From contig JAHIVT010000071.1 in NCBI GenBank assembly GCA_018816555.1, positions 898 through 64,897 of the forward strand: 64,000 nucleotides of DNA, written 5' to 3'. Source of the DNA: Pseudomonadota bacterium. GTDB lineage: Bacteria > Desulfobacterota > Desulfobulbia > Desulfobulbales > SURF-16. Both the position numbers and the translations under genes were made by a program. Positions within the stretch are counted from its first letter, which is position 1. Each line of letters begins with the position of its first letter. The notes under the pieces are model-generated. The model worked only from the letters and a program-made list of their open reading frames with translations, searched no databases and was not told the origin of the DNA. This document shows positions 30,887 through 57,103 of the stretch, piece by piece.

Positions 30887-30887
30887 G

Positions 30888-41600: not shown

Positions 41601-41800
41601 TCGATGATCTGGGTTACAGTATTTTCAACGGTCTCGCCCGAGGCTCCGGGGAAATAGGAATCAATGGCAATGGCCGGCGGCGCGATGGACGGATACTGTG
41701 AGATGGGCAGATTATAGATCGCCAGGCCACCTGCCGTCATCATGATAATGGCGATGACCCAGGCAAAGACCGGCCGGTCTAAAAAGAACTTAGATAGCAT
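38618..41800 (-). CDS. RND multidrug efflux permease, AcrB/MexB (HAE1) type
   Basis: MLSKFFLDRPVFAWVIAIIMM...; 1060 aa, 12-TM architecture with canonical AcrB motifs. Confidence 0.95.
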   Translation of the reverse strand: MLSKFFLDRPVFAWVIAIIMMTAGGLAIYNLPISQYPSIAPPAIAIDSYFPGASGETVENTVTQIIEQKMTGLDDMLYLSGTSSSSGASRVEMTFAPGTDPDVAWSKVQNKLQLAMASLPDVVQRSGVKVSKSTRNYLLIVGLTSEDGSMDGNDLRDYAQSNLEKILSRVPGVGEVQNFGSQYAMRVWVNPDKLTSYSLTMEDVILALRAYNVEVSAGQLGGSPAMEGQRLNAAIIVQHLLQTPEEFAAIPIRTNPDGSVVRVKDIGRTELGTERSDIVANYNGKPAAAMAIRQAAGANALDTANAIKQKLEEMSHYFPPGMKVIYPYDTTPFTEVAIDEVVKTLFEAVLLVFVVMYLFMGTFRATLIPTIAVPVVLLGTFGILGLFGFSINMLTMFAMVLAIGLLVDDAIVVVENVERIMAEEGLSPREATAKSMGEITSALIGIGLVLSAVFGPMAFFPGSTGVIYRQFSVTVISSMLLSVVVALVLTPVLCATMLKPVPKGHEPSDGAVWFLRPFFRWFDRIFFRGRDLYVRLVGRVLAKKLRYLFLFVLIVGAMGYLFQRMPTSYIPDEDQGILMVQAMLPSGSSLEQTEAVINKVRDYFLGQEKDGVDSIMTIAGTSFGGEGQNMALGFVKLKDWKLRQRPDLKVGAIAGRAMGAFSQIKEAMVFAFPPPPVIELGMATGFDLQLLDRGGMGHEKLMAARNQLLGMAAQDPRLIRVRPNGMSDVAEYHIDVDWDKAGALGIPIDSIHNTIAAAFGSSYVNDFIQAGRVKKVYAQVDAPFRMLPQDLEKLYVRNSVGKMVPFSSFASGRWVMGSPKLERFNAFPSINIWGEPAPGRSSGEAMAAMEEIIAKLPQGIGYDWTGLSYQERMAGSQAPLLYAFSIFVVFLCLAALYESWPIPIAILLTLPLGVIGGVIASSMRGMPNDVYFQIGLLTTLGLTTKNAILIVQFARARVDAGAGLIEATLEAAKLRLRPIIMTSLAFGFGILPLALAVGAGSGAQRAIGTGVLGGTVTSTFLVTIFAPLFYVLIYKILGKHRKKVTIQHVAESSPGGHAHE

Positions 41801-43020: not shown

Positions 43021-43039
43021 GGGAACCTCATAGTCTTTA

Positions 43040-43059
43040 CGGAATGAACATTCATTCCG
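43040..43059. promoter_or_regulatory. palindromic TetR-type operator upstream of the RND operon
   Basis: CGGAATGAA-CA-TTCATTCCG (9-bp arms), 20-39 nt upstream of the adaptor start. A second copy lies at 43694-43711. Confidence 0.55.
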
Positions 43060-43096
43060 CTAGTAGATAAAAAAAATTCGCGCTGTCTTCCTTGAG

Positions 43097-43672
43097 CTAG
43101 CGCCTAATTCCGTCCCAACAGGCCTCGATAATCTTGGTGATCAGAACATTATCTAACTTGACCACATCAAGAATGTGGTCCCGGACCACGTAAAGAACAG
43201 GGCCAAAGGCCAGGTCGAAAATAACCGTCAGTGGAAAATCCTTTATCATCTGTTGGGAAATACCTTCCTCGAAAAATTCATGGAACACATCGCGGTTTTC
43301 TCTTGCCCCCAAGATTCGGTCCCTGCGGAGTGCCGCACCGTAGGGGGAGCCGTGAAACTGTTCCACATAGCGAAAATCAAGGGGGTTCTCGATGAAATAC
43401 TGCAGCAGCGCCTTACCGAGATGGAGAAATCGTTCTCGAACAGGCCGCTCGGAATCATATCCCTGCAGGATGTACGGAAAAAGTCGATCTTCTATATCCT
43501 CATACAGGACGGAGATCAGGATATCCTTGTTTGCAAAGTAACGGTAAATCGTGCCGGCCCCAACCCCTGCCCGACTGGCGATCATGGCTATGGGAGCCCC
43601 GTGAAAACCGTGTTCGGCGATAATTTCAAGGGCAGCACGGATAATCTCGTCGCGTTTTTCTGTTTTTAACAT
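43097..43672 (-). CDS. TetR/AcrR-family repressor
   Basis: HTH GFHGAPIAMIASRAGVGAGTIYRYFANKD. Likely start is ATG 43672 (MLKTEKRDEI); the track start 43708 lies inside the operator palindrome. Confidence 0.85.
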   Translation of the reverse strand: MLKTEKRDEIIRAALEIIAEHGFHGAPIAMIASRAGVGAGTIYRYFANKDILISVLYEDIEDRLFPYILQGYDSERPVRERFLHLGKALLQYFIENPLDFRYVEQFHGSPYGAALRRDRILGARENRDVFHEFFEEGISQQMIKDFPLTVIFDLAFGPVLYVVRDHILDVVKLDNVLITKIIEACWDGIRR

Positions 43673-43693
43673 GGTTTTCCTTATTGCAGTCTC

Positions 43694-43711
43694 GGAGTGA
43701 ATGTTCATTCC
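43694..43711. promoter_or_regulatory. second copy of the TetR operator palindrome (autoregulation site)
   Basis: GGAGTGAA-TG-TTCATTCC: one mismatch relative to the 43041-43058 site. Confidence 0.5.
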
Positions 43712-43834
43712 TAATGTATTTCCTTATCCTTTATACGTCAAGAAAAACTTTGCGCCCGCTTTTGGGCGAATCGACAATAACCGATAAAACAGGTCGCATT
43801 GTGCAAAATGACCGGCGTTCCCCGCTCCATCATT

Positions 43835-44542
43835 TTATAGAAAGGGCTTTGCTAAAAAATAGCAGCCAAGACCCGCGATCACCACGCCCGCCCCTTTGCG
43901 GAACCACAGGCTGCCCCGGCCGAAAAATGCGCTTGTTGTAAACCTTTTCACCATGGCTGTGGAGCTGCCTGCCACGGCAATGGGCAGACAGTGGCCAACG
44001 GCAAAAAGCAGGATGAGCAGCACACCGGTCATCACCTGCTTCTGCACGGTGATGATGGCCAGGATGGGGGCAATGAAGCCGAAGGTGCAGGAGCCGGAGA
44101 GAACACCATAGGCAAGTCCCAGCACAAATGCGCCCCAGTGTCCCCGTAACCGCAGCCGCCCCATGACACCTGCCGGCAGACAACACCTGGCCAGGCCCAG
44201 CATGTCCATAGCCACCCACAGCAGGATCAGCCCCACGGCAATGGTCCAATAGGGACCGATATCGCCCAGCATCCGGCCGAGCAGGGCACAGATAATACCC
44301 ACCAGGGTGATGGTGAGAAAAAGGCCGCCGCTGAACAGCACCGCATACCAGGCAGCCTGCCGGCCCTGGACAAGCTGATCCTGACCGCCCACATAGGCCA
44401 CGATCAAGGGGATCGAGGCCAGATGGCAGGGGCTGAACAGCACGCTGATCATCCCCCAGGCAAAACAGCCCAGGGCGGCAATGGCAGTGGTGCCGGCCAT
44501 CCACTGGTTGACGAGCAGAAAAATGGAATCCATCGTGATCAC
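43835..44542 (-). CDS. ccdA: CcdA/DsbD-type transmembrane thiol-disulfide electron transporter
   Basis: Motifs LFSPCHLASIPLIV and LSGSCTFGFIAPIL; six TM helices. ATGA overlap with the upstream thioredoxin gene. Confidence 0.85.
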   Translation of the reverse strand: MITMDSIFLLVNQWMAGTTAIAALGCFAWGMISVLFSPCHLASIPLIVAYVGGQDQLVQGRQAAWYAVLFSGGLFLTITLVGIICALLGRMLGDIGPYWTIAVGLILLWVAMDMLGLARCCLPAGVMGRLRLRGHWGAFVLGLAYGVLSGSCTFGFIAPILAIITVQKQVMTGVLLILLFAVGHCLPIAVAGSSTAMVKRFTTSAFFGRGSLWFRKGAGVVIAGLGCYFLAKPFL

Positions 44543-44934
44543 TTCTCCTGCTGTTCCATCACACCCATTTCTTTGAGTTTGGCGACAATGCCCTCTTCAG
44601 CCAGAAAGCCCTCATGCCGGTAGATTTCCTTGCCGTTTTTGTCAAAAAAAATCTGGGTGGGGATAGAACGGATACCAAATCTCTTAGACTGACTGCCGTC
44701 CTCCCAGACATCGATAAAGACAATGGCCGCCCGGCCCGCATATTCCTTTTGCAGCTTTTCCAGGATCGGCGCCATCATTTTACACGGAATACATTTGCCG
44801 GCCCCGAGATCAACCATGGTCACCATGTCTTTCACCGGAATTTCCTGCTGCGCAGCCCAGGCTGGACCACTCAGCAGCAGAATCACGGCAATAACGATAC
44901 ATCCCAGCATCCTGTTACGCATTTTTTTCTCCAT
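44539..44934 (-). CDS. exported thioredoxin-fold protein (TlpA/ResA-like), CIPC active site
   Basis: Signal peptide IVIAVILLLSGPAWA. Motifs GAGKCIPCKMMAPIL and SIPTQIFF. The start ATG overlaps the RND stop (TAATG). Confidence 0.8.
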   Translation of the reverse strand: MEKKMRNRMLGCIVIAVILLLSGPAWAAQQEIPVKDMVTMVDLGAGKCIPCKMMAPILEKLQKEYAGRAAIVFIDVWEDGSQSKRFGIRSIPTQIFFDKNGKEIYRHEGFLAEEGIVAKLKEMGVMEQQEK

Positions 44935-47900
44935 TATTTTGCAGTTGTTAAAGAGAGGTACTCCCCATCCACACCGCTTTTCCCCCGGTCCACCGTATAG
45001 GCAAACATGGGAATATAAATCAGGGTCAGAATGGTTCCGACCAGCAGGCCGCCTATGGCCACGTCAGCCAGGGGGGAAAGACGTTCCAGTCCAACAGCCC
45101 ACTCAAAGGCAATGGGGATCATGCCGGCCATGGTGCCGAAGGCGGTCATGAATACCGGTCTGAACCGCACCCGCACCGACTCCATGGCCGCCGCAAAGGG
45201 CGACTCCCCTGTCTTGCGGAACACCTGGTAAAAATCAATGAGCAGTACCGAATTTTTGATGATGATGCCGAAAAGCAGCATGATGCCCACCATGCTGGGC
45301 ATGCAACTCGGCTTATTAAAGACCAGCATGCCCCAGGAGGCGCCGATCATGGCAAGGGGCAACACCAGGATCATGACCACGGAAAGCCGAACCGAATGAT
45401 AGATGGCAATGAGTGCCATGAGCAGCAGGACCACGCCGATGGCAATGGCCTTGATCATGCGGGCGAAACTGTCCTGCATCTGTTTGATGTCTCCCTCCTG
45501 GCTCAGCTCGACCCCGCTGAAATCCTCCTGATGCAGCTCCCTTTCCACATCCCCCATGATGGTGGACATGGCGCGCTTACTCCGGTAGCCTGATACATCC
45601 ACGGAATAGAGCATCTGATTGCGCTCGATCCTGTTAGCCGTGAGGCCATAGCTGATGGTGGCCAGTGCCTCCAGGGGAACAACCCCTTTGGGTGTCTGGA
45701 TGGGGATGAGGCGCAGATTATCCGGATGACTGTCCAGGGCAGGGGCAAAATCGAGCCTGACAAACTGGCTCTGCATGGAAACAAGATTGCCGTTAATAGC
45801 CACCGGCACGCCTGCCAGCGGCAATTGGGCCGCGATCATCACCGGGGTCATGCCATAGGCCAGGGCCTTGTTGGTATCAATCTCCAGCCGTGCCTCGGTG
45901 AAGTCCTCATCCCAGCTGGTATTTACCGAGGTAAGCCCCTTGACCCGGCCCAGGGCGGAGACAGCCCGGGATGCGGCCTGGGGCAGCAGATGATAGTCCT
46001 CGGCCAGCAGCCGCACATCAACCGGCGCCTTGATACTGCTCATGGCGGTGGCGCCGAAATCATAGACATCCGCCGCTTTGACATTGGCCAGTTCGGTCAA
46101 TTTGCCACGAATTTCATCTTCAATCTGCCAGACGGATTTCTTGCGCTCAAAACGGTTGACACAGTTAATGGTCATAACGGCTTCCGTGGGAAGCGATCCG
46201 GACCCCATGGACAACACGCCCGGTTCCGCCCCGAAGGTAATCGAACTCATCTCCACCTCCGGCTGCGCCTTGAGCCAGGCTAAAACCGGCAGCAATCTCT
46301 TTTCCACCGTCTCCACCGTCTCATTGGCGGAAAATTTGACATGGGCCTTGATAATGCCGGTATCCATGGGCGGCATCAGATCTCGGCCGATAACAGGCAT
46401 GATGTTTCTGATACTGACGGCCAGCAGGACAATGACCCCGACGGTCATCAGCAACCGGCGCAGCCCGGACCGCCCTCCGTTGGAAAAGCGCAGGATGGAG
46501 AGATAGGGCCCCACCAGCCGGCCGAAACTCCTGTCATACACCTTTTCCAGCAGGAGTTCAAAACGGGTTTTCGTGACGCCTTTCCGATAAAGCCAGAAGG
46601 AAATGGATGGAATAAAGGTGATGGAAAGAAAATAGGAGACAAGCAGGGCAATGATCAGGGTGGAGATCAGGGGCCTGAATATTTTTTCCGGGAAATCCCC
46701 CACAAAGAGAAAGGGGATCATAATGGCAATGGTGGCCACCGTGCCGGCAAAAACCGGGGCAATGACCTCTTTGGTGCCGGCAATGATGGCGGTATTGAGA
46801 TCTTCTTTAAGCTCGCCGAGATGGCGCTCAATATTTTCCAGCACCACCACTGCGTCATCAACCAGCATGCCGAGGGCCAGGATGATGGCGGTGTAGATGA
46901 CGATATTGAGTTCTCCGCCGCCCATCCAGATAATGGCGATGGTGGAGAAAAAAACCATGGGAATGGAGGCCAGTGCCGCGGTCACGGCCCGCAGATTGCC
47001 GAGAAAAAGCAGAATCACCAGCAGGGTGAAGAAGATGGCATCCCGCAGGGCCTCAAGCATGTTGACATTGGCGGTTTCGATCAGATTGCGCTGGGTGTCC
47101 GCCAGTTGAAAATCAATATTGGTGTAACGCGGTATAAGCTGGGCAACCGCGCTCCGGGCCGCCTTACTGGTGGACAGCACCGAGCCCCCGGGCGCCCGCT
47201 GGATAGCCAGGGCGATGGCGGGTTTGCCGTTGCCGATATAGCCGGATAACCTTTTCTGATGGTGCCAGCTGATGTCGGCAATATCCCCCAGGCGCACGTT
47301 GGTCGCCACCGGCAGCATGGCCAGCGCTTCCACCTGATCCCGCTCACCGTAATAGGCCAGCGTATAAAAAGAATCCTCGCCCTTGACAAAACCAATGGGT
47401 ACATCCCTGTCCAGACTGCGGATGATGCCGCCTATTTTATCCAGGGCAATGCCGTAACTCTTGGCCTTGAACGGATCGATATTGATCATGATGGCGCTCT
47501 GGAAACCGCCGAAAATCTCCACATTCCCGATGGCGGAATTCCTGAGCAGGGCCGGTTTGATGTCACTTTCGGCGATTTTGCGGATATCGGCCAGAGACAG
47601 GTTGTCATTTTTCGGGCTTAAGGCAAAGACATCAACGGGCAGGGTAAAGGAGCCGGCCGTGTAAATGGCCGGGGTGACCCCTGCGGGCAATTTGTCCCGC
47701 ACCTTGTTGATAGCGTTGTTCACATCCACTGCCGCCGGATCAAGACCTTTTTTATACTCGAATTCAGCGGTGACAATGGACATGCCGGCAATATTGGTGG
47801 AACTCACCTGGCGGATGAGGGCAAGGGTGGATATTTCCTGTTCAATGGGTTTGGAGACCGTGGCCGCCACCATATTGGGGGTGGCGCCCGGCACCTGGCT

Positions 47901-48038
47901 CATGACGATCACCGTGGGCCGTTCGGAATCGGGGAACAGGTTCTTGGGCATGACCACCAGACCGTAGACGCCCAGCACGAAAAATCCGGCAATCAGGCTG
48001 TAGAGCAGGTAGGGACGTTTATGAAAGAAATCGAACAT
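44934..48038 (-). CDS. RND efflux permease (AcrB/AcrD/AcrF superfamily), second pump
   Basis: 1034 aa with 12-TM RND architecture. Motifs LGMLVDDAVVVLENIERH and RFRPVFMTAFGT. Confidence 0.9.
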   Translation of the reverse strand: MFDFFHKRPYLLYSLIAGFFVLGVYGLVVMPKNLFPDSERPTVIVMSQVPGATPNMVAATVSKPIEQEISTLALIRQVSSTNIAGMSIVTAEFEYKKGLDPAAVDVNNAINKVRDKLPAGVTPAIYTAGSFTLPVDVFALSPKNDNLSLADIRKIAESDIKPALLRNSAIGNVEIFGGFQSAIMINIDPFKAKSYGIALDKIGGIIRSLDRDVPIGFVKGEDSFYTLAYYGERDQVEALAMLPVATNVRLGDIADISWHHQKRLSGYIGNGKPAIALAIQRAPGGSVLSTSKAARSAVAQLIPRYTNIDFQLADTQRNLIETANVNMLEALRDAIFFTLLVILLFLGNLRAVTAALASIPMVFFSTIAIIWMGGGELNIVIYTAIILALGMLVDDAVVVLENIERHLGELKEDLNTAIIAGTKEVIAPVFAGTVATIAIMIPFLFVGDFPEKIFRPLISTLIIALLVSYFLSITFIPSISFWLYRKGVTKTRFELLLEKVYDRSFGRLVGPYLSILRFSNGGRSGLRRLLMTVGVIVLLAVSIRNIMPVIGRDLMPPMDTGIIKAHVKFSANETVETVEKRLLPVLAWLKAQPEVEMSSITFGAEPGVLSMGSGSLPTEAVMTINCVNRFERKKSVWQIEDEIRGKLTELANVKAADVYDFGATAMSSIKAPVDVRLLAEDYHLLPQAASRAVSALGRVKGLTSVNTSWDEDFTEARLEIDTNKALAYGMTPVMIAAQLPLAGVPVAINGNLVSMQSQFVRLDFAPALDSHPDNLRLIPIQTPKGVVPLEALATISYGLTANRIERNQMLYSVDVSGYRSKRAMSTIMGDVERELHQEDFSGVELSQEGDIKQMQDSFARMIKAIAIGVVLLLMALIAIYHSVRLSVVMILVLPLAMIGASWGMLVFNKPSCMPSMVGIMLLFGIIIKNSVLLIDFYQVFRKTGESPFAAAMESVRVRFRPVFMTAFGTMAGMIPIAFEWAVGLERLSPLADVAIGGLLVGTILTLIYIPMFAYTVDRGKSGVDGEYLSLTTAK

Positions 48039-48041
48039 GGC

Positions 48042-49208
48042 TCAGGCCCCGGCCTTGCTGTCAACAGGGGGAGAGGCCGCCATAACCTTGACCGGCGCGC
48101 CGCTGGCAACCCGCAATAAAATATCGGGTTTGGCCATCAGCACCGTTCTGGCCTCAAGCGCTTCAGCAACCACCACCCCTTCACTGCCGCGGGCAATAAT
48201 GGTCACCGGGGTCTTGACGGCGGCTCCGTTTTCCCAGATAAAGACCGAGGTACGGCCATCAATGGTGAGCAATGCATCCATGGGCAGCAGGACCGTATTC
48301 CCCGCATAGATCACCAGATCGATGCGTACATATTGGCCTTCCAGTGTCCCTGATTCCTTGGGCATGGGGGCCACATACTGGGCCAGGCCGGTGGTGGCCG
48401 TGGCCTGGTTTCTGGCAGACAGGGCAAGGGCGTGCCCCTGCCAGAGGGCCTGGGTCGCCTGCAGTGAAGCGGGCAGGGAGAGGTTCAGATACTGCCCGGA
48501 GCAGGCGGCAATGCGAAAAAGGGTTTTACCGGGCATGGCCATATCCCCCACCATCACCTCCCGCTTGCTCACCGTGCCGCAGGTGGGGGCAAGGATATCC
48601 GTATAGCTCAGCAGTGACTGGATCTCTTTTTCATCCTGCAGCAGGATCTCCTTGTTCTTTTCCAGGGAGGCAATGCCATTGCTGGCAGCACTTATTTTTG
48701 CCTCAAACTGGGCAATGGTTGCCTCTTCCTGGCGGGACTGCTCCTGTGAGGCGCCCTTGACCGCCAGCAGTTCCAGGGTGCGCTGATGGGTTTCCCCGGC
48801 AACCGCCAGGGTGGTGCGCAGGGACTTGAGATCCTCTTTTTTGGCGGCTATTTCATAATCAAGTCCTGCCCGTTTCAGGTGCAGACTCTCCTTTTTGGCG
48901 GCCAGATCCGTGGCATCAATGCGGGCCAGCACATCGCCCTGCTGCACCACGTCCCCTTCCTGTTTGAAAATCTTAACGACCCGCCCGCTCACCTTGGTGG
49001 ACAGGGTTGACGAGAGTTCCGAGCCAACCACCCCCATGGCGGGCAGGGTAAGGGTAACCTGATCTTTTGTGAGCTTTACCGCCTGCACCACCACCGGCAG
49101 AATGGCGGCCGGCGTGTCCCTGGCCAGTTGCGCTTTTCTTTTTTGCAGCAGCACCACAGCACCCAGCACAAGCAGGGCCACCAGCAGAATCGTCACTATC
49201 TTTTTCAT
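48042..49208 (-). CDS. RND periplasmic adaptor (HlyD/MFP family)
   Basis: N-terminal TM anchor, VSGRVVKIFKQEGDVVQQGDVLARID lipoyl-like hairpin, coiled coil. Confidence 0.8.
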   Translation of the reverse strand: MKKIVTILLVALLVLGAVVLLQKRKAQLARDTPAAILPVVVQAVKLTKDQVTLTLPAMGVVGSELSSTLSTKVSGRVVKIFKQEGDVVQQGDVLARIDATDLAAKKESLHLKRAGLDYEIAAKKEDLKSLRTTLAVAGETHQRTLELLAVKGASQEQSRQEEATIAQFEAKISAASNGIASLEKNKEILLQDEKEIQSLLSYTDILAPTCGTVSKREVMVGDMAMPGKTLFRIAACSGQYLNLSLPASLQATQALWQGHALALSARNQATATTGLAQYVAPMPKESGTLEGQYVRIDLVIYAGNTVLLPMDALLTIDGRTSVFIWENGAAVKTPVTIIARGSEGVVVAEALEARTVLMAKPDILLRVASGAPVKVMAASPPVDSKAGA

Positions 49209-50491
49209 TGCACCACACCCCGCAGATCAATGCCGTAGAGGACAGCCTGTTGCGACCACAATTGCCATCTCTTGCTTTGCACTTCCTCCACCGCGGCCTG
49301 GGAGGCCAGCAGCTGGCTTTCATAGCGCAGGTACTCCTCAAGGGTCATGCGACCCGCAGTAAAGGATACCTTGGCCGTGGCCAGGAGTTCATGGCTGTTT
49401 TTTTCCGATTCCCGGGCAAGCTGCAGCGACTGTTCAAGAAGCGGCAGCTTGTCCGTAAGATTTTTCGCCAGGGCCGCGAGTTCAATTCTGGCCTGGGCCA
49501 GCTTTTTTCTGGCCTGACTCAGCCTGATGTCCGCCATCTCCTCGCCGGTGCTGATGGTTTGGTCAAAAAGCGGCATCTGCAGTTTCACCCCGCCGTAATT
49601 GTAGCTTCTGAAGATATGCTCATCGGTATTATAGGCCTCGCCGTCGTTGCCGGAGATGGTGCCATACAGCAAAAGCACGGGATAGCGCGCTTCACGGCTC
49701 CTCTGGGCCTCTTTTTCCGCGGCAGCCACCTCTGTGGCTATCTTCTGCTCGGTGATGAAATCAGAGCCGGCCAGTGTGCCGGCAAGCGCCATGGCAACCG
49801 GCGCCGCAAGATCAATACCGGTCAGTTTCTTCAGGTCGCTCCGCACATCGGCAATCCGGGCCATGATACTGTTGCGCTGCTGCTTCAATTCATTGATTGA
49901 GTTGTTGATTTTGTAGAGCTCGATTTCGGCCGCCCGGCCGTTTTTCACCTTGAGCTCCACCTCCTGGCCGGTGATTTCCAGGGAATCAATGCGGCCGGCG
50001 ATGGCCTCATTGAGATTAACCAGATAGAGATAGCTGCTGTTTGCCGCAATCACGGCGGACTCCCTGGTGATGAGATTGATCCGGTGCGCAAGATTTGCTC
50101 TGTCGCTTAACAGCTTCACCTTTTCCTGCAGGGTATAGAGCTGTTTGGCATAGATGGGCATTTCCAGAGTCAGGCCGTAGCGCAGGATGTCACGGGAAAA
50201 CGGTATCGAATCACCTGCCGCGATATCAACCTCGGTGGGCGGCATGGGCCGCAGGTTGGTGGGCGAATTATAGCTCTCCGTCCGTCCGAAGAGGTTGACC
50301 TTGGGATAGAGGGCGGCCCGTGCCTCTTCCACCTGAACCTCTGATTCCCGCACAGCCAGTTCGCTCAGTTCGACTGCCGGTTGTCCGGCAACCGCTTCCA
50401 GCAGATCACTGATATCATAAGCCCATGCCGGCATGGCCCGCAAAAGCAGGCCCAGGGAGAAGAGCAAAATCCACAGTTTCTTTTTTTTCAC
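49205..50491 (-). CDS. TolC-family outer membrane efflux protein
   Basis: Signal peptide LWILLFSLGLLLRAMPAWA, two TolC repeats. 4-nt overlap with the adaptor gene. Confidence 0.8.
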   Translation of the reverse strand: MKKKKLWILLFSLGLLLRAMPAWAYDISDLLEAVAGQPAVELSELAVRESEVQVEEARAALYPKVNLFGRTESYNSPTNLRPMPPTEVDIAAGDSIPFSRDILRYGLTLEMPIYAKQLYTLQEKVKLLSDRANLAHRINLITRESAVIAANSSYLYLVNLNEAIAGRIDSLEITGQEVELKVKNGRAAEIELYKINNSINELKQQRNSIMARIADVRSDLKKLTGIDLAAPVAMALAGTLAGSDFITEQKIATEVAAAEKEAQRSREARYPVLLLYGTISGNDGEAYNTDEHIFRSYNYGGVKLQMPLFDQTISTGEEMADIRLSQARKKLAQARIELAALAKNLTDKLPLLEQSLQLARESEKNSHELLATAKVSFTAGRMTLEEYLRYESQLLASQAAVEEVQSKRWQLWSQQAVLYGIDLRGVVQ

Positions 50492-50520
50492 TTATGAGCC
50501 TCTTGCAAAATGGACGGGGT

Positions 50521-50949
50521 TCAAAATTTCAGCATTTTAATGAAATCCCGGATCTCATCCCGTACCCGGCGGTAATGGCTCAGCGCCTCTTCTTCAGTGT
50601 TGGCACCCGCGGCAAGTTTCGGCGGATCATCAAAACCATGGTGCACTACCCTGGTGGGTCCAGGGAAGAAGGGGCAGTTTTCATCGGCATGGCCGCACAC
50701 CGTGATCACCAAATCAAACTCCTGTTCAGGCAGATCCTTCACCAGCTTGGAGCGGTGATTGCTGATGTTCACTCCGGCCTCGGCCATCACCCTGACGGCC
50801 AGGGGGTTGAGACCATGGGTCTCGATGCCGGCGGAATAGGCGATGATATCGCCTGCGCGAAGATGCCTGGCCCAGCCTTCCGCCATCTGGCTGCGGCAGG
50901 AGTTGCCGGTGCAGAGAAAGAGAACCTTTATTTTTTTATTTCTAGACAT
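50521..50949 (-). CDS. arsC: arsenate reductase, LMW-PTPase/thioredoxin-coupled type
   Basis: VLFLCTGNSCRSQMAEGW P-loop. VCGHADENCPFFPG supplies the Cys82/Cys89-type pair. The true ATG is at 50949; the track's 35-codon N-terminal extension runs through palindromic repeats. Confidence 0.9.
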   Translation of the reverse strand: MSRNKKIKVLFLCTGNSCRSQMAEGWARHLRAGDIIAYSAGIETHGLNPLAVRVMAEAGVNISNHRSKLVKDLPEQEFDLVITVCGHADENCPFFPGPTRVVHHGFDDPPKLAAGANTEEEALSHYRRVRDEIRDFIKMLKF

Positions 50950-50965
50950 GACGCACCATTTGAAC

Positions 50966-51078
50966 ATGCCCCACAATAACGGCGCCTTGCTGCAGTGAAA
51001 ATCTTGCTGTGTACAAGGAGCGGGCCATGCCCGCGATAACGCTATTGTGGGCATACCAATGCCGCGGGCATGACCCGC
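50966..51078. repeat. GC-rich palindromic units in the Trx-like/arsC spacer (REP-like)
   Basis: GCGGGC-cat-GCCCGC (51020-51034) and GCGGG-catga-CCCGC (51064-51078). A flanking inverted pair ATGCCCCACAATA (50966-50978) / TATTGTGGGCAT (51043-51054). Confidence 0.45.
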
Positions 51079-51140
51079 TTCTTGAAGATGGCATTACGCT
51101 GCGGCTGGGACCTTCATATTAACTCGTTTTCAAAGTAGAA

Positions 51141-51371
51141 TTATTTGAACCAGGACATAACATCCTTTTTGCTAGGCACCTTGCCGGTGCATTTGATCTT
51201 GCCGTCAATCACCACAGCCGGGGTGGCAAAAACGCCCAGCTTGGCAATCTCGCTGAAATCGGAGATTTTCTGCACGATAACTCCTATACCCGCCTCTCCC
51301 AAAGCCTCATTGACTATTCTTTCCGTTTCATGACATTTCGGACAACCAGGTCCGCATACTTTGATTTCCAT
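51141..51371 (-). CDS. small thioredoxin-fold protein (redox-active disulfide protein 2 type)
   Basis: MEIKVCGPGCPKCHETERIV...ATPAVVIDGK. GGAG RBS 6 nt before ATG 51371. Confidence 0.8.
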   Translation of the reverse strand: MEIKVCGPGCPKCHETERIVNEALGEAGIGVIVQKISDFSEIAKLGVFATPAVVIDGKIKCTGKVPSKKDVMSWFK

Positions 51372-51437
51372 GACTTTCTCCATATTAAGTTGTTTATTTT
51401 TCCATCAAAAAATGAATTCCTAATAATGTCTATTTTT

Positions 51438-51523
51438 CACCACGGAGCACACAGAGGTCACAGAGAAATATTTTTTTAATTACTGTTAGTTATCTCTGTG
51501 TGCTCTGTGCTCTCTGTGGTAAA
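51438..51523. repeat. inverted array of CACAGAG/CTCTGTG heptamers forming a long imperfect hairpin
   Basis: Left arm CCACGGAGCACACAGAGGTCACAGAGA, right arm TCTCTGTGTGCTCTGTGCTCTCTGTGG, about 27-nt AT-rich loop. About 23 pairable positions. Intra-operon spacer. Confidence 0.55.
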
Positions 51524-51559
51524 TTTTCGGTTTTTACAAAATTTTCACAAACACGTTTC

Positions 51560-52855
51560 TTAAAAAAACGAGCCGAAAATAAGCCCGCTGATGGTCGCCA
51601 TGACAATCACCAGGCAGACAAAGACCACTGTTTTCTTGGTGCCCATGATGCTGCGGATTACCAGCATGTTGGGCAGGCTGAGGGCCGGACCGGCCAACAG
51701 CAGGGCCAGGGCCGGTCCCTTGCCCATGCCGCTGCCGATCAGACCCTGCAGGATCGGCACCTCGGTCAAGGTGGCAAAATACATGAAGGCCCCGGCAAAA
51801 GAGGCAGCGAAATTTGCCATGAGTGAGTTACCGCCCACGGCCCGGCTGACCCATGTTGATGGGATCAACCCCTCCTGCCCCGGTCGGCCCAGCAGAATGC
51901 CGGCAATAAGCACCCCGAACAGCAGCAGGGGCAGAATCTGCTTGGCAAAACCCCACGACTCCCTGAACCATTCCCCTGTTTCATCCTCCCTGGGACTGAT
52001 GACAACACTCAGAGCGAGAACCCCGGCCACAAAGGCCAGAGTGGGATGGCCGGAAAACAAAAAGGCAAGAATAAACGCAGGGACAGCAGCCAACACCACC
52101 TGCCATTTAGGCAGGCCATACCATGTCATGAGCATCAGGCCGAGAGCAGCGGAAAAGATGCCGGTGATCAGCCATTTATTGCCATAAATGGTATGCCAGA
52201 GACCGGTGGTTTCTGCAGGTTTTCCCCAGTTGGCAAAGACCAGGATGCCGACCATGGCGGCAAAATAGAGAACATTCTGCCATAGTGGGCGCGTCACCTC
52301 GGCTTCCGGCATCTCAATATGGGCCTTTTCCATTTCCTCCTTCCTGAAAAAGAAATGCATGAGCAGGCCGATAATAACGCTGAAGAAAATAGCCCCCACC
52401 GCCCGGGCAATGCCCAGCTCCGGCCCGAGGATGCGGGCCGTGAGGATAATGGCCAAGATATTAATGGCCGGACCGGCATAGAGAAAGGCGGTGGCCGGTC
52501 CCAGCCCAGCCCCCATCTTATAGATGCCGGAAAAAAGAGGCAGAATGGTGCAGGAACAGACGGCGAGGATGGTACCAGACATCGAGGCCACACCATAGGC
52601 CAGCATCTTGTTCGCTTTGGGCCCAAGATATTTCAGCACCGAGGCCTGGCTGACAAAGACGGCAATGGCGCCGGCGATAAAAAAGGCCGGTACCAGACAG
52701 AGCAACACATGCTCGCGAGCATACCATTTGACCAGGTGCAGCGACTCCATGACCGCATTATCAAAGCGCCCGTTCCCCACCGGCAAATAATAGCAGCCGA
52801 TAAAAAACGCCACGATCCAGACCAGCGTCTTCCATTCTCTTTTCCAATCCATCAC
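51560..52855 (-). CDS. COG0701/DUF318-type permease (ArsP/YraQ family), second copy
   Basis: Motifs SGTILAVCSCTILPLFSGI and GPATAFLYAGPAINI; 10-11 TM helices. Confidence 0.8.
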   Translation of the reverse strand: MMDWKREWKTLVWIVAFFIGCYYLPVGNGRFDNAVMESLHLVKWYAREHVLLCLVPAFFIAGAIAVFVSQASVLKYLGPKANKMLAYGVASMSGTILAVCSCTILPLFSGIYKMGAGLGPATAFLYAGPAINILAIILTARILGPELGIARAVGAIFFSVIIGLLMHFFFRKEEMEKAHIEMPEAEVTRPLWQNVLYFAAMVGILVFANWGKPAETTGLWHTIYGNKWLITGIFSAALGLMLMTWYGLPKWQVVLAAVPAFILAFLFSGHPTLAFVAGVLALSVVISPREDETGEWFRESWGFAKQILPLLLFGVLIAGILLGRPGQEGLIPSTWVSRAVGGNSLMANFAASFAGAFMYFATLTEVPILQGLIGSGMGKGPALALLLAGPALSLPNMLVIRSIMGTKKTVVFVCLVIVMATISGLIFGSFF

Positions 52856-52894
52856 TGTTTCTCCAAAAAGAGTGCGGAGATCAGCCGCAGACAG

Positions 52895-53122
52895 CTATAT
52901 ATTTTTTTGTTCATCTCTCAGCACCTCGTCCACCAACCGGCGGACATCGGCCAGGCATCAGTGGGCTGCGGGGTTATTGGCGGCACAGTTGCAGGCCCCT
53001 GCCCGGGATACGGCCATAATCCGTTCGAGAATGGTCGAATGGCCATATCTGGCGGCATCCTGCCTGATATCCTCCCTGGAATAACCCATGCAATAACAGA
53101 CCAGTTCCTTGTTTTCCTTCAT
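52895..53122 (-). CDS. small BFD-like Cys-rich protein with in-frame UGA (candidate selenoprotein); absent from ORF track
   Basis: Hand translation: MKENKELVCYCMGYSREDIRQDAARYGHSTILERIMAVSRAGACNCAANNPAAH-U-CLADVRRLVDEVLRDEQKNI. ATG 53122 lies 12 nt after the upstream stop. TGA is at 52958-52960 and TAG at 52895-52897. A hairpin lies at 52928-52945. Confidence 0.55.
52928..52945 (-). promoter_or_regulatory. SECIS-like stem-loop downstream of UGA 52960
   Basis: mRNA sense GUCCGCC-GGUU-GGUGGAC: 7-bp stem at +16..+22, with a GGUU loop at +23..+26 from the U of UGA. Confidence 0.45.
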
Positions 53123-53133
53123 AAGAGCCCCTA

Positions 53134-54228
53134 CTAAATAATCAGGTTAAAAAGAAAACCGGTGAACAGGATACCGACGCCGACAACGCCGATGAAGACG
53201 GCGATCAGTTTCGGTTTCAGCACCTTGCGCAGGATCACCATCTCGGGCAGGGACAGGGCGATGACGCTCATCATGAAGGCCAGCACCGTGCCCAGGGCCG
53301 CACCTTTACTGAGCAGGGCCTGCACCACCGGCACGATGCCCGCGGCATTGGAGTACATGGGGATGCCGACCAGCACCGCGGCAGGCACCGACCACCAGGC
53401 ATCCTTGCCCATGATGGCGGCCATGAAATTTTCCGGCACAAAGCCGTGGATCATGGCGCCGACGGCGATACCGGCCACCACATAGAGCCACACCTTGCCG
53501 ACGATGTCTTTTACCGCCTCGCCGCCCATCACCATGCGGTCATGCCAGCTGAGTTTCTCTTCCACGATGATCTGCTCGCCCATGCGGATCTCCCGCACCC
53601 AGTCTTCAATATGGTGCTCGAGATGCAGGCGGCCGATGACCCAGCCGGCAATGATGGCCACGGCAAGGCCTGTAGCCATATACAGAGCGGCGATCTTCCA
53701 GCCCAGCAGGCCGTAGAGCAGCACCACGGCTATCTCGTTGACCATGGGAGCGGCAATGAGAAAGGAAAGGGTCACACCCAGAGGCACGCCGGCCTGGACA
53801 AAGCCGATAAAGAGCGGCACAGCGGAACAGGAACAGAACGGGGTGACAGTGCCTAATAATGCCGACAAGACATTGCCGGCCGACTCCCTTTTCCCGGCCA
53901 GAATCCTGCGCGTCCGCTCAGGAGTGAAAAAGGAACGGATCATGCCCACCACAAAAACAATAAGAGTGAGCAGCAGCATGACCTTGGGGGTGTCATAGAC
54001 GAAAAACTGGATGGATGCTCCCAGATGACTGCCCTGGTCAAGCTGCAAAAGATGATAAGCAAAAAAGTTGGAAAACGGCAGCAACTGGAGGTAGAGCACA
54101 TACCAGGCTGCAAGACCGGCAAATCCCAGGCTGAGCTGCTGAATGGTTATCTTCTTTTGCCTGACCGGGGCACCTAACGAGCAGACCCCACCGTCACAGC
54201 CGCAGTCAATCTTTTCCGTAGTTTTCAT
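53134..54228 (-). CDS. ArsP-like COG0701 permease with N-terminal Cys cluster
   Basis: GTVTPFCSCSAVPLFIGF (the TPFCSCS motif known from ArsP). N-terminus KIDCGCDGGVCSLG. Likely start is ATG 54228. Confidence 0.75.
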   Translation of the reverse strand: MKTTEKIDCGCDGGVCSLGAPVRQKKITIQQLSLGFAGLAAWYVLYLQLLPFSNFFAYHLLQLDQGSHLGASIQFFVYDTPKVMLLLTLIVFVVGMIRSFFTPERTRRILAGKRESAGNVLSALLGTVTPFCSCSAVPLFIGFVQAGVPLGVTLSFLIAAPMVNEIAVVLLYGLLGWKIAALYMATGLAVAIIAGWVIGRLHLEHHIEDWVREIRMGEQIIVEEKLSWHDRMVMGGEAVKDIVGKVWLYVVAGIAVGAMIHGFVPENFMAAIMGKDAWWSVPAAVLVGIPMYSNAAGIVPVVQALLSKGAALGTVLAFMMSVIALSLPEMVILRKVLKPKLIAVFIGVVGVGILFTGFLFNLII

Positions 54229-54319
54229 GATGTCTTCTTTGTGAAGGATTCGTATGTATGTCCCTTGCGGCTGCACCGTAAGGGAGGTTCGCGAACCGCC
54301 CCTACACAAACCTCTCGTC

Positions 54320-54347
54320 TTTTTATTATCTGTTTTTTATTATCTGT
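54320..54347. repeat. perfect 14-bp tandem duplication in arsR/permease spacer
   Basis: TTTTTATTATCTGT x2 (54320-54333 and 54334-54347). The nearby perfect palindrome GGTTCGCGAACC is at 54286-54297. Confidence 0.7.
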
Positions 54348-54359
54348 ATGATCCGCTTA

Positions 54360-54704
54360 TCAGGCGGCGCAGCTCCGCTCGCGGTTCAACTGGGGCAAGC
54401 TGTCAACCATCTCCCGCACCTGCGGCTCCTCATCAAGCCAGCCCTTGAGATTACCCAGCATCACCCGTGCGTACTCGGAGTCCTCCCCTGCGCTCAAGCG
54501 GTAAATGATCCAGGAACCTTCCTTGCGATAGTCAACCAGCCCGGCCTCTTCAAGGATCTTAAGATGTTTGGAGACGGTGGGCTGGGCCAGGCCGAGGAGC
54601 TGCCGCAATTCGCAGACACAGAGTTCCTTGACGCCAAGGATTTTGATGATCTTCACCCGGCTGGGATCAGACAAGGCCTTCATCACACGGACAAATCGTT
54701 TCAT
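54360..54704 (-). CDS. arsR: ArsR/SmtB-family metalloregulator
   Basis: LSDPSRVKIIKILGVKELCVCELRQLLGLAQPTVSKHLKILEEAGLV. AGGAGG RBS 5 nt before ATG 54704. Confidence 0.85.
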   Translation of the reverse strand: MKRFVRVMKALSDPSRVKIIKILGVKELCVCELRQLLGLAQPTVSKHLKILEEAGLVDYRKEGSWIIYRLSAGEDSEYARVMLGNLKGWLDEEPQVREMVDSLPQLNRERSCAA

Positions 54705-54726
54705 GCTTTCCTCCTGATACATTTTC

Positions 54727-54746
54727 ATATTGCCATATGGCTATAT
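54727..54746. promoter_or_regulatory. 20-bp near-perfect palindrome, candidate ArsR operator
   Basis: ATATtGCCATATGGCtATAT (core GCCATATGGC is perfect). Abuts the putative -10 of the minus-strand promoter. Confidence 0.5.
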
Positions 54747-54772
54747 GTAGCTCAGTAATTTGCTTCTGTCAA
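54744..54772 (-). promoter_or_regulatory. putative sigma-70 promoter of the minus-strand arsR cluster
   Basis: On the minus strand: TTGACA (54772-54767), 17-nt spacer, TACATA (54749-54744). Confidence 0.4.
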
Positions 54773-54804
54773 GGGGGCAGTAAAATTTTCCCAAGGCCAA
54801 ACAC

Positions 54805-54833
54805 TTGACACATATCCGCCTACACGGATATAT
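54805..54833 (+). promoter_or_regulatory. putative sigma-70 promoter plus operator of arsR2-acr3
   Basis: TTGACA (54805-54810), 17-nt spacer, ATATAT (54828-54833). Inverted repeat ATATCCG-cctaca-CGGATAT (54812-54831) fills the spacer. The ATG is at 54844, so the leader is very short. Confidence 0.5.
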
Positions 54834-54843
54834 TGAAGATATT

Positions 54844-55191
54844 ATGAAGGAGATGGCTAAACTTTTTAAAGCCCTGTCCGAGGACGTACGGCTACGGATT
54901 CTCGGCCTGTTGTGCCAGGGCGAGCTGTGTGTCTGCGACCTGATGGCGGTGCTTGATCTTCCCCAGTCGACAATCTCCCGGCATCTCTCTTACCTGACCA
55001 ATGCCGGTTGGCTGGCCGGGGAACGGCGGGGGGTCTGGATGTATTACCGTCTTATCGATGATGGCGGTGACCTCCAGCAGGATCTCATGGCCGTGCTGAT
55101 AAAACATCTGGCAAAGCTTCCCGCCGTTGCCCGTGACTATGCCAGGCTTACGCAATATCTGAAAACCAAAAACCCGTCAGCCTGCGGCTGA
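54844..55191 (+). CDS. arsR: ArsR/SmtB-family metalloregulator (second copy)
   Basis: LSEDVRLRILGLLCQGELCVCDLMAVLDLPQSTISRHLSYLTNAGWL. Confidence 0.85.
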   Translation: MKEMAKLFKALSEDVRLRILGLLCQGELCVCDLMAVLDLPQSTISRHLSYLTNAGWLAGERRGVWMYYRLIDDGGDLQQDLMAVLIKHLAKLPAVARDYARLTQYLKTKNPSACG

Positions 55192-55204
55192 TTTGTCAAT
55201 GTTT

Positions 55205-55225
55205 GGATTGCGGATTGCGGATTGC
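55205..55225. repeat. GGATTGC heptamer x3 microsatellite
   Basis: GGATTGCGGATTGCGGATTGC followed by a partial GGA. The palindrome TGCAAAC-tt-GTTTGCA at 55241-55256 follows. Confidence 0.8.
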
Positions 55226-55285
55226 GGAAGGGCATGATGGTGCAAACTTGTTTGCAAAATGGAATTAATAAGGAATTTATCAATC

Positions 55286-56374
55286 ATGACACAACAGAAA
55301 AAAAGGCTTTCCTTTCTTGATCGTTTTCTCACCTTCTGGATCTTTCTTGCCATGTTTGTCGGCGTGCTGGGCGGCTACCTCTATCCCGGCATCCGTGATG
55401 TCATCAATTCCTTCCAGGTGGGCACCACCAATATTCCCATCGCCATCGGCCTGATCCTCATGATGTATCCGCCCCTGGCCAAGGTGCGCTATGAAAAGCT
55501 GCACGAGGTCTTCCGCAATGGCAAAGTGCTCGTCCTGTCGCTGGTGCAGAACTGGATCATCGGTCCCATCCTCATGTTCGGTCTGGCCATCGCCTTCCTT
55601 TCCGGCCATCATGAGTATATGGTGGGCCTCATTCTCATCGGCCTGGCGCGCTGCATCGCCATGGTCATTGTCTGGAACGATCTGGCCGAGGGCGACCGGG
55701 AATACTGCGCCGGGCTGGTGGCCTTCAATTCCATCTTCCAGGTGCTCTTCTTTTCGCTGTACGCCTGGATTTTTATCACCATTCTGCCCAGATGGCTGGG
55801 CATTGAGGGCGCTGTGGTGGATATCTCCATGGCGGATATTGCCAAATCGGTTTTCATCTATCTGGGTATCCCGTTCATTGCCGGCATACTGACCCGGTTC
55901 ATCGGCGTGAAAGCCAAGGGAGAAACATGGTACCAGGAGAAACTCCTGCCGAAAATCAGTCCGCTAACCCTTATTTTTCTGCTCTTCACCATCCTGGTCA
56001 TGTTTTCGCTCAAGGGTGAGTACATTGTCCAACTGCCGCTCGATGTGGTGCGCATCGCCATCCCGCTCACCATCTATTTTCTGGTGATGTTCCTGGTTTC
56101 TTTTTTCCTGTCGATGAAGGCGGGAGCCACCTATGAACAGTCGGCAACCCTCTCGTTTACCGCTGCCTCCAATAACTTTGAGCTGGCCATCGCCGTGGCC
56201 ATCGCCGTTTTCGGCATCGACTCGGGCCAGGCCTTTGCCGCGGTGATCGGCCCCCTGGTCGAGGTGCCGGTGCTGATCTCGCTGGTCAATGTGGCCTTCT
56301 GGTTCAAGAGAAAATATTTCCCCTTTGCCAAGGAAACCCCTACAGGTATCTGCCATGTGAGCTGCAAGCCATAG
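55286..56374 (+). CDS. acr3: ACR3-family arsenite efflux transporter
   Basis: [20 protein letters not shown]...[18 protein letters not shown]...; 10-TM ACR3 pattern. Confidence 0.9.
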
Positions 56375-56584: not shown

Positions 56585-57103
56585 ATGAACTTTGATGAAT
56601 CCATTAAAATATTTGAATTGCTGTCATATATAGTGACAACAATTGGTCTGCCGTTCGCGATTGGTACATTCATTTTCCAGAAAAGGAATGAGCACAAAGC
56701 CGAAGAAGAAAACACATTCCATCAACTGGATGAAAGCTATGTTTCGTTTCTTCAGCTATGTTTGCAACACCCTGATCTGGATATTTTCTGCCCGCCTATT
56801 GGCAATACATACAAACCTACAGAGGAGCAGCTACGAAGAGAGCATGCAGTGTTTGGGATATTAATTTCATTATTCGAGCGAGCTTATTTCATGTTTAGGG
56901 ATAAATCCCCTGAATTTAGACGTTCACAATGGAGGGGCTGGGTTGAGTATATGGAATGTTATAGTTACCGTGCTAACTTTGAAAGAGAATGGAATAAAAT
57001 CGGCAGCCAATTTGACAAGGAGTTTCAAACATTTATGCAAAATTTAGTAGAAAAGACAAAGGCGGCTGACAATGCTGCCGACGCAAAAAAACCGCGCGGC
57101 TGA
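56585..57103 (+). CDS. hypothetical protein with one N-terminal TM helix, low-GC gene
   Basis: ORF of 172 aa. Hand counts of GC on three 60-nt lines gave 27-43%. No motif recognised. Confidence 0.45.
   Translation: MNFDESIKIFELLSYIVTTIGLPFAIGTFIFQKRNEHKAEEENTFHQLDESYVSFLQLCLQHPDLDIFCPPIGNTYKPTEEQLRREHAVFGILISLFERAYFMFRDKSPEFRRSQWRGWVEYMECYSYRANFEREWNKIGSQFDKEFQTFMQNLVEKTKAADNAADAKKPRG

Follow-up and report, generated by a model that had tools for sequence, protein, structure and literature searches.

Here, we describe an island of ars-type genes that encloses a tripartite RND efflux pump, at positions 43835 to 56374 of a 64,000-nucleotide stretch of DNA (the window; JAHIVT010000071.1 positions 898 to 64,897, forward strand) from a Pseudomonadota bacterium (GCA_018816555.1; GTDB Desulfobacterota; Desulfobulbia; Desulfobulbales; SURF-16), together with related loci in other genomes, where pumps of the same clade recur beside genes of the same kinds. 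Window genes were identified from a listing of open reading frames (ORFs), their translations and scans against Pfam and NCBIfam, which returned thirteen genes in the order, on the strands and at the coordinates given by an initial annotation made from the sequence alone. The features are as follows (product lengths in amino acids, aa):

43753..43768, minus strand: terminator-like hairpin with a T-rich tail, ~70 bp past the ccdA stop, probably closing the long minus-strand transcription unit (consensus scan only)
43835..44542, minus strand: CcdA, membrane electron conduit of the DsbD beta-domain type, 235 aa (Pfam DsbD_TM, E = 3.9e-13)
44539..44934, minus strand: exported classical thioredoxin (Trx), 131 aa (PF00085, E = 3e-14; signal peptide; CIPC)
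44934..48038, minus strand: RND inner-membrane subunit, 1034 aa (Pfam ACR_tran, E = 2e-162)
48042..49208, minus strand: MFP (periplasmic adaptor), 388 aa (HlyD_D23 and Biotin_lipoyl_2)
49205..50491, minus strand: TolC-like outer-membrane factor, 428 aa (Pfam OEP, E = 6e-26)
44939..50517, no strand assigned: window-specific TolC-MFP-RND cassette, delimited by blastn against the sibling locus L069 and by the junction sequences
50521..50949, minus strand: ArsC of the low-molecular-weight phosphatase type, 142 aa (LMWPc; TIGR02691, E = 8e-44)
51141..51383, minus strand: ArsE, or redox-active disulfide protein 2, 80 aa (TIGR00412, MTH895/ArsE family)
51409..51540, no strand assigned: palindromic repeat of ~130 bp between permease 2 and arsE, forming a long hairpin of the CACAGAG type
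51560..52855, minus strand: permease 2, COG0701/ArsP_1, 431 aa (Pfam ArsP_1, E = 1e-76; AVCSC)
52895..53122, minus strand: small CopZ-N-terminal/BFD-like (seleno)protein, 75 codons (TGA at 52958-52960, then TGC, giving H-U-C)
52921-52956, minus strand: SECIS-like hairpin of the small ORF (folding free energy, dG = -18.9 kcal/mol; z = -2.3)
53134..54231, minus strand: permease 1, ArsP-like COG0701, 365 aa (Pfam ArsP_1, E = 1e-76; TPFCSCS; N-terminal CGC...C)
54360..54704, minus strand: arsR1 (HTH_5, NF033788; ELCVCEL and a conserved C-terminal Cys)
54705..54843, no strand assigned: divergent control region, 139 bp (two palindromes and a sigma-70-like promoter)
54844..55191, plus strand: arsR2 (HTH_5, NF033788; ELCVCDL and a C-terminal Cys)
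55259..56374, plus strand: acr3, ACR3-family permease, 371 aa (TIGR00832, 460.7 bits against a cut-off of 282.8)

The two arsR genes diverge from one control region, previously put at 140 bp. The minus-strand genes had been described as separated by short gaps or overlaps throughout, and this holds for most of them but not for three gaps of 128-191 bp, namely arsR1-permease 1 (128 bp), permease 2-arsE (176 bp) and arsE-arsC (191 bp). The pump and redox genes are tightly packed, with 29 bp between arsC and tolC, a 4 bp overlap of tolC with the MFP start, and overlapping or almost abutting ends at tolC/mfp, rnd/trx and trx/ccdA.

A genome collection was scanned with the window RND protein, with one genome per species, yielding 65 related loci (L-numbers), most of them in metagenome bins. 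Counts were made for loci whose RND orthologue is at least 60% identical and that have 4 kb or more of flank (n = 39), and for those with 6 kb or more on each side (n = 18); neighbours within 10 kb of the pump were scored by mapping the window proteins with tblastn and by clustering crude ORF calls. RND orthologues of 60-80% identity are present in many Desulfobacterota orders, and also in bins classified as Chlorobaculum, Methylomirabilota, Zixibacteria and Sulfuricurvum. The genes found near the pump are:

Any ars-type gene: 28/39 loci; 15/18 loci
ArsR: 26/39 loci; 14/18 loci
Permease: 20/39 loci; 11/18 loci
ArsE: 22/39 loci; 11/18 loci
Exported thioredoxin: 21/39 loci; 10/18 loci
CcdA: 20/39 loci; 10/18 loci
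ArsC: 12/39 loci; 7/18 loci
Acr3: 8/39 loci; 6/18 loci
CDF cation exporter (His-rich N-terminus, Cys-rich tail): 12/39 loci; 6/18 loci

Permease and ArsE occur together in 19/39 pump loci, and exported thioredoxin and/or CcdA in 21/39. COG0701 permeases number a few per genome, and the chance that one lies within 10 kb of a given gene is roughly 1%; co-occurrence of the pump with ars-type genes is far more frequent than chance and recurs in dozens of species-level genomes. The initial annotation had named conserved synteny as the check on its proposal, and the link of this RND clade to ArsR, a COG0701 permease, ArsE, exported thioredoxin, CcdA and ArsC is indeed conserved, also outside Desulfobacterota, in Campylobacterota and on a Betaproteobacteria plasmid. 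Gene order differs among loci, with Trx-CcdA upstream of tolC in some and downstream of RND in others, which argues for selection on linkage rather than for one inherited block. The same-strand gene less than 400 bp before tolC is CcdA, Acr3, ArsE, CDF, ArsR, a permease or ArsC in 14 loci, and TauE in one. More distant RND proteins, of 38-46% identity (L052, L054), also adjoin ArsR-permease-ArsE.

In an RND tree (neighbour-joining only, and rough), the deepest branches are those of Sulfuricella, Sulfuricurvum (L038) and L050, all three with full ars-type context, and loci that are context-free or carry MarR are scattered among the ars-linked ones. Ancestral ars linkage with scattered losses is the simplest reading of this pattern, with the window representing retention or re-insertion of the pump and its sibling locus a loss. 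Cultured carriers with ars context are Sulfuricella denitrificans skB26 and Geothermobacter hydrogeniphilus HR-1; in Desulfosarcina cetonica the pump is present and its flanks showed no ars-type neighbours.

Several further genes accompany the pump. The CDF exporter, whose N-terminus is His-rich and whose C-terminal tail is conserved and Cys-rich (C-H...CWP), is found in L010, L012, L013, L017-L019, L021, L023, L032, L048, L050 and L057, and not in the window. A TauE/SafE exporter paired with an FmdE-family protein recurs in pump islands (L008, L009, L012, L034, L036; L071 at 13667-15061); FmdE is found in five pump loci and TauE in four, with Sulfuricella in addition, and a DGC-domain protein in seven loci. 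A PAS-HD-GYP protein of the window (34792-35835) is ~55% identical to proteins encoded 0.4-1.6 kb downstream of RND in L015, L023, L026 and L057, and may be a recurrent companion of pump islands, possibly a regulator linked to cyclic di-GMP.

A relative in a cultured organism was found by tblastn of plasmids, on pSCD of S. denitrificans skB26 (NC_022358.1), whose RND protein is 48.5% identical to that of the window. The RefSeq gene order begins with rhodanese, ArsC, ACR3, a GDCCVxC (seleno)protein, permease, a hypothetical protein, arsenite methyltransferase and two hypothetical proteins, continues with a thioredoxin-family (ArsE-like) protein, ArsC, a sigma factor, TolC, MFP, RND, thioredoxin and CcdA, and after CcdA runs through OsmC, TauE and FmdE to, further on, CDF. 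Identity to the window proteins is 61% for the permease (against permease 1), 55% for thioredoxin and 37% for CcdA. The TolC-MFP-RND-Trx-CcdA order is thus the same in both islands and lies amid ars-type genes in both; pSCD differs in being plasmid-borne, in having a sigma-70-family gene rather than arsC directly before tolC, and in an RND protein devoid of cysteine. A review of plasmids listed only CzcD and ACR3 genes for pSCD (PMC4224046).

The sibling locus of the island itself is L069, a 126-kb Desulfobulbaceae contig reached through the few close database relatives of the truncated small-ORF product. Blastn aligns it collinearly with ~45 kb of the window, with nucleotide identities of 73-92%, and it carries acr3, arsR2, arsR1, permease 1, the TGA-containing ORF, ArsE, ArsC, exported thioredoxin and CcdA in the same order, with protein identities of 94% (acr3), 92% (ArsE), 91% (permease 1), 82% (CcdA) and 80% (thioredoxin). 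Three segments of the window are missing from L069: 51382-52918, which holds permease 2 and most of the ~130-bp palindromic repeat; 44939-50517, the pump cassette; and 29143-43851. The TolC-MFP-RND cassette fills an arsC-trx spacer that is 36 bp long in L069 (homology gap 16 bp), starting a few bases past the arsC stop and ending ~20 bases before the trx start, with the trx ribosome-binding site intact. No direct repeats were seen at the cassette junctions, and there is no compositional sign of recent insertion, as G+C at third codon positions is 0.69-0.71 in the cassette and 0.56-0.75 in the ars core genes. Because the cassette sits 5' of trx, Trx-CcdA, which are ars-operon genes in L069, are now downstream of the pump in the window. 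The 12.5 kb are therefore not a single indivisible unit, since in L069 the ars core occurs with neither the RND cassette nor permease 2; the island is a mosaic of separable modules, in which permease 2 and TolC-MFP-RND are extra cassettes inside the arsR1 operon.

Smaller differences between the two loci lie in the gaps and flanks. The permease 2-arsE gap of the window carries the palindromic repeat and the arsE-arsC gap carries GC-rich palindromes, and the matching gaps in the sibling genome are much shorter (131 bp against 176, and about 15-32 bp against 191). The additional DNA of the arsE-arsC gap (50950-51140) includes the GC-rich palindromes GCGGGTCATGCCCGC and GCGGGCATGGCCCGC. The CACAGAG-type hairpin, built around an AT-rich loop, has one copy in the window and two in L069 (7839-7942 and 19177-19305) at unrelated places, a distribution that points to a small palindromic repeat, mobile or REP-like. 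The segment 29143-43851 (14.7 kb, with GC up to 0.59-0.61 in places) encodes a small membrane protein, an ABC-2 permease, a fused ABC ATPase/permease, HlyD, the PAS-HD-GYP protein, a methyltransferase, a C-terminal TetR remnant (35963-36295) and a classical NodT-AcrB-AcrA-TetR operon. Beside acr3, L069 has a 266-aa methyltransferase (5825-6625), for which the label "ArsM-like" is a guess from position only since its Pfam matches are generic; the window has there an unrelated 172-aa ORF (56585-57103) with no family match.

The window RND protein scores far under all NCBIfam subfamily cut-offs (best NF033617, 464 bits against 1250), and its best solved relative is MdtB (256 bits, ~25% identity); by these comparisons it belongs to a separate, deep-branching clade. 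Alignment with E. coli AcrB and CusA shows that the AcrB proton relay D407/D408/K940/R971/T978 is entirely kept; four of these residues are invariant in 36/36 aligned sequences and K940 is present in 33/36, and all five are found in the Sulfuricella protein. Of the aromatic distal pocket of AcrB, F178 alone is kept. Identity as a heavy-metal (HME) pump was ruled out by the TIGR00914 score (261 bits against a cut-off of 701) and by the missing CusA methionine sites, as the triad M573, M623 and M672 aligns to H, A and T, and the relay methionine positions to V, L, A and K. The pump is thus, as judged from its residues, mechanistically AcrB-like (HAE-type) though outside the curated subfamilies, and what ties it to metalloids is its genomic context. 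Among its partners, the MFP scores just below the TIGR01730 cut-off (90.3 bits) and has no conserved Cys/Met/His-rich motif, and no conserved metal-binding motif was found in the outer-membrane factor.

Only two cysteines occur in the window RND protein, C626 and C912, each with a predicted periplasmic position. Aligned orthologues of at least 60% identity keep both without exception, and the Sulfuricella protein has Y and A in their place. A role of thioredoxin and CcdA in keeping C626/C912 reduced was considered, and is undermined by the cysteine-free Sulfuricella RND protein, which stands in the same pump-Trx-CcdA arrangement and makes a general model of this kind unlikely.

The acr3 product matches TIGR00832 over its full length and above the curated cut-off. 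ArsC has the CX5R P-loop (CTGNSCRS) and the C85/C92 pair (VCGHADENC) of pI258-type low-molecular-weight phosphatase-like reductases, and is a close relative that lies below the TIGR02691 equivalog cut-off (149 bits against 174.3). ArsE, a small cytoplasmic thioredoxin-fold protein, scores 86 bits with TIGR00412 (cut-off 62), and its CxxC is kept in 16/16 homologues. With ArsP_1, the two permeases each reach 258 bits (cut-off 32.3); with the SaoE and SO_0444 Cu/Zn efflux models, they stay far under the cut-offs. Their CSC is unchanged in 25/25 homologues; Haft and colleagues have discussed the CSC/USC motif that SaoE/SO_0444-type permeases carry (bioRxiv 10.1101/2022.07.06.499078). Orthologues of permease 2 occur as ArsR-Perm2-ArsE in L012, L032, L041 and L058.

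The exported redox protein had been labelled TlpA, which is wrong: it matches PF00085, Thioredoxin_2 and TIGR01068, and Pfam and NCBIfam scans gave no Redoxin or AhpC-TSA match. It has an N-terminal hydrophobic segment with ...AWA/AQ, a possible alternative start at 44922, and a CIPC motif invariant in 13/13 homologues. CcdA scores 49.7 bits with DsbD_TM (cut-off 27.1), and its membrane residues Cys39 and Cys152 are invariant in 19/19 homologues. Like the DsbD/CcdA-dependent relays CcdA-ResA/TlpA and ScsBCD, the pair thus combines a CcdA with two membrane cysteines and an exported CxxC thioredoxin-fold partner; unlike them, the partner is a classical thioredoxin (PF00085) rather than a TlpA/ResA-type Redoxin, and the context is ars genes and an RND pump rather than cytochrome maturation or copper.

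In the control region, a 22 bp palindrome, CATATTGCCATATGGCTATATG (54726-54747), adjoins the arsR1 start, and a second palindrome, ATATCCG-N6-CGGATAT (54812-54831), overlaps the arsR2 promoter, a strong sigma-70-like promoter on the plus strand (TTGACA-18-TATATT, 54805-54834). Neither palindrome has a further copy in the whole window, and no internal ArsR operator was found 5' of arsE, arsC or tolC. A consensus scan placed the single terminator-like site past the pump after ccdA, and an Rfam scan of the long gaps for regulatory RNAs gave nothing meaningful. ArsR1 and ArsR2 both score above the Pfam HTH_5 and NF033788 cut-offs. ArsR1 orthologues keep CVC in helix alpha-3 and one C-terminal Cys, and do not have the third Cys that is classical for R773 ArsR. 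By analogy, three-thiol binding of As(III)/Sb(III) would fit this pattern, which is not diagnostic of it.

The small ORF between the permeases had been proposed to contain a U-C pair and to be BFD-like. The first proposal is well supported. Homologues from at least four contigs (the window, L069, L070 and L013/L062) share its TGA and the in-frame motif CL(A/T)(D/E)VR(R/Q)xVD past it, and the stem-loop GUCCGCC-GGUU-GGUGGAC, with a 7-8 bp stem, lies 11-12 nt 3' of the UGA and keeps its pairing through G-C/G-U changes in homologues. In a HMMER search with the N-terminal 54 residues as query, 283 cluster representatives matched at E <= 0.001, and 78 of the best 93 of these 283 matches end exactly at the selenocysteine (Sec) position. 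Full-length homologues have Cys-Cys there (P0011, P0041, P0057, P0074, P0138), and a few show Trp-Cys, probably from a TGA read as Trp by the gene caller. The ORF is thus, from these alignments, very probably a selenoprotein of a large, widespread family of at least 283 cluster representatives, and this family (proteins P0005-P0154) looks systematically mis-annotated, because gene callers truncate most public predictions at the selenocysteine codon.

The BFD-like label is weak, at 21.6 bits with Fer2_BFD (cut-off 26). A better match is NCBIfam CopZ_Nterm_CC (E = 8.7e-13, 48.7 bits against a cut-off of 100), followed by CopZ_Nterm_CU (E = 1.5e-4, 21.8 bits against 190), so that the profile scores make the protein a relative, and not a defined member, of the BFD/CopZ N-terminal families. 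It aligns to the C-terminal half of the models for the 2Fe-2S (seleno)proteins CopZ_Nterm_CC and CopZ_Nterm_CU (Csac_0668), including the CC/CU site; it differs in being a stand-alone protein of 75 residues, with Sec first in the pair (U-C) rather than second. No tRNA gene was found in the window. The selenoprotein had been counted as part of the combination of functions in the island; it was rejected as a conserved pump-island member, as a hidden Markov model of the family finds it only in the window, its siblings and one locus in which a contig end cuts the ORF.

Classical ars operons (arsR-acr3/arsB-arsC, and arsP in Campylobacter and others) share with the window an ArsR/SmtB regulator with CVC, ACR3, a Trx-coupled ArsC, an ArsP_1 permease with CxC, and divergent autoregulated promoters with palindromic operators, to which the window adds the RND pump, exported thioredoxin and CcdA, the second permease and the small selenoprotein. 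We know of no RND pump that is part of an ars system, and no report tying one to an ars operon was found in open-access text of the literature. The redox genes are another matter: CcdA and Trx along with redox-active disulfide protein 2 in ars operons were reported in 2010, with eight instances listed, usually with arsC, and a role with ArsC was proposed for them, with no mention of an RND pump (PMC2963123). L069 is exactly of that type; the window differs in that its thioredoxin is clearly exported, by its signal peptide, and the Trx/CcdA pair is linked to the pump in ~20 genomes. Contrary to what had been supposed, a periplasmic reductant relay is thus not new to ars operons, and the statement that the island was uncharacterised as a unit stands, as far as the open-access text searched shows, for the RND-ars link, but not for the CcdA/Trx/ArsE part. 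The arsenic-induced ArsR-ArsP-ArsE-DGC operon of Pseudodesulfovibrio mercurii ND132 (bioRxiv 10.1101/2022.10.17.512643) resembles the window in its ArsR-permease-ArsE triad, and its DGC-domain gene is of the type seen in the seven pump loci noted above; it lacks the pump, exported thioredoxin, CcdA and ArsC.

The conserved association across phyla supports a functional link and the reading of an envelope-spanning system. On balance, we lean towards the island being, as far as sequence can tell, a modular, ArsR-controlled system that exports arsenic-type thiol-reactive metalloids in two stages and includes a periplasmic dithiol relay, and we infer this substrate and the co-transcription of the island as most likely. 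In such a system, binding of metalloid at the Cys sites of ArsR1 and ArsR2 would lead to derepression, and As(V) would be reduced by ArsC. The proton-driven RND pump, with its AcrB-type relay, would take substrate from the periplasm or outer leaflet and move it across the outer membrane, and CcdA would transfer cytoplasmic reducing power to the exported thioredoxin. The periplasmic dithiol maintained in this way could protect envelope thiols or handle the substrate.

Several observations weigh against this interpretation. The relay of the pump is of the AcrB/HAE type, and a conserved Met/Cys/His cluster for metal binding is missing, so that nothing in the pump indicates a metalloid, and its clade-invariant C626/C912 are not found in the Sulfuricella protein, which has no Cys at all. 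The sibling genome does without the pump cassette, and 11/39 pump loci are without ars-type genes, a count that also goes against a single indivisible unit; in four of these a MarR gene precedes tolC, and the flanks of such loci hold unrelated genes. The linkage counts are set against a general estimate of chance rather than a matched control RND clade. A CDF divalent-cation exporter accompanies 12 pumps, and the substrate in common might therefore be something other than arsenic. In addition, transcription that starts at the arsR1 promoter could be broken by the hairpin-rich 176- and 191-bp gaps, which are window-specific, or likewise be stopped by a terminator-like site at the permease 2 end, and arsE, arsC and tolC have no additional copy of an ArsR operator upstream of them.

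It is possible, though we do not expect it, that TolC-MFP-RND is an ordinary multidrug, solvent or organic-toxicant pump that shares no substrate with the ars genes and is merely co-selected and co-transferred with them in plastic resistance islands. The ars-free and MarR-preceded loci, the sibling locus without the cassette, and the AcrB-type relay without a metal motif would all follow, and other efflux systems (TetR-AcrA-AcrB-NodT; ABC-2/HlyD) do lie nearby in the 14.7-kb window-specific segment; one non-ars locus has transposase genes beside the pump. Such co-carriage would, however, have to account for linkage in 72-83% of loci in several phyla, with variable order and operon-like adjacency; for ars context in all of the deepest RND branches; for a pump-Trx-CcdA order that recurs at 48% RND identity on a betaproteobacterial plasmid; and for more distant RND clades that are also linked to ArsR-permease-ArsE, and the neighbouring classical AcrAB-type pump has not been integrated into the operon. 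We consider it distinctly improbable that the unit serves divalent thiophilic metals (Zn, Cd, Pb, Cu, Hg), with ArsR/SmtB proteins as Cd/Pb/Zn sensors and the COG0701 proteins as SO_0444-type Cu/Zn exporters. The CDF exporter of 12 loci, with its His-rich N-terminus and Cys-rich tail, fits this explanation, as do permease matches to the SO_0444 Cu/Zn efflux and SaoE models and a TolC-MFP-RND order resembling czcCBA, and CVC motifs also occur in CadC-type sensors. Those permease scores fall far short of the cut-offs of both models, however, the RND protein fails the HME family tests, and 12 loci have ArsC and 8 have Acr3; Sulfuricella also has an ArsM gene (the sibling-locus methyltransferase is "ArsM-like" by position only), and the ArsR-ArsP-ArsE operon of ND132 is induced by arsenic (bioRxiv 10.1101/2022.10.17.512643).

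Very little speaks for the exported thioredoxin and CcdA being housekeeping genes of cytochrome c maturation or envelope redox that merely adjoin the island, an explanation to which we attach hardly any weight. CcdA carries the annotation of a cytochrome c biogenesis protein, and Desulfobacterota make many c-type cytochromes, but Trx/CcdA lie inside ars-type operons in the window, L069, Sulfuricella and ~20 further loci, packed with ArsC or the pump, and the same association was independently reported in 2010 (PMC2963123).

A narrower form of the proposed metalloid export system, which we regard as unlikely, is that the RND clade is a dedicated tripartite exporter of trivalent arsenicals, probably organo- or thio-arsenicals that re-enter easily, with the CIPC thioredoxin as a CusF-like periplasmic dithiol carrier recharged by CcdA. 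The exported thioredoxin would then strip metalloid from envelope thiols or pass it to the pump. A functional analogue, though not a relative, is Cu(I)/Ag(I) export by CopA and CusCFBA, in which an inner-membrane exporter, a periplasmic carrier and a tripartite RND pump handle a thiophilic ion in turn; CusA is of the HME type with a methionine relay that the window RND protein lacks, and the window has no CusF homologue, for which the dithiol thioredoxin recharged by CcdA is the candidate counterpart. If such a dedicated exporter is real, it would be the first RND pump for arsenic.

To our knowledge, the known arsenic efflux proteins (ArsB, Acr3, ArsP, ArsK, ArsJ) reach no further than the inner membrane, and how Gram-negative bacteria clear arsenite or membrane-permeant methylarsenite from the periplasm is a question rarely raised. 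An RND clade with seemingly ancestral ars linkage, and likewise the exported thioredoxin/CcdA pair, are concrete candidates for this missing periplasm-clearing step.

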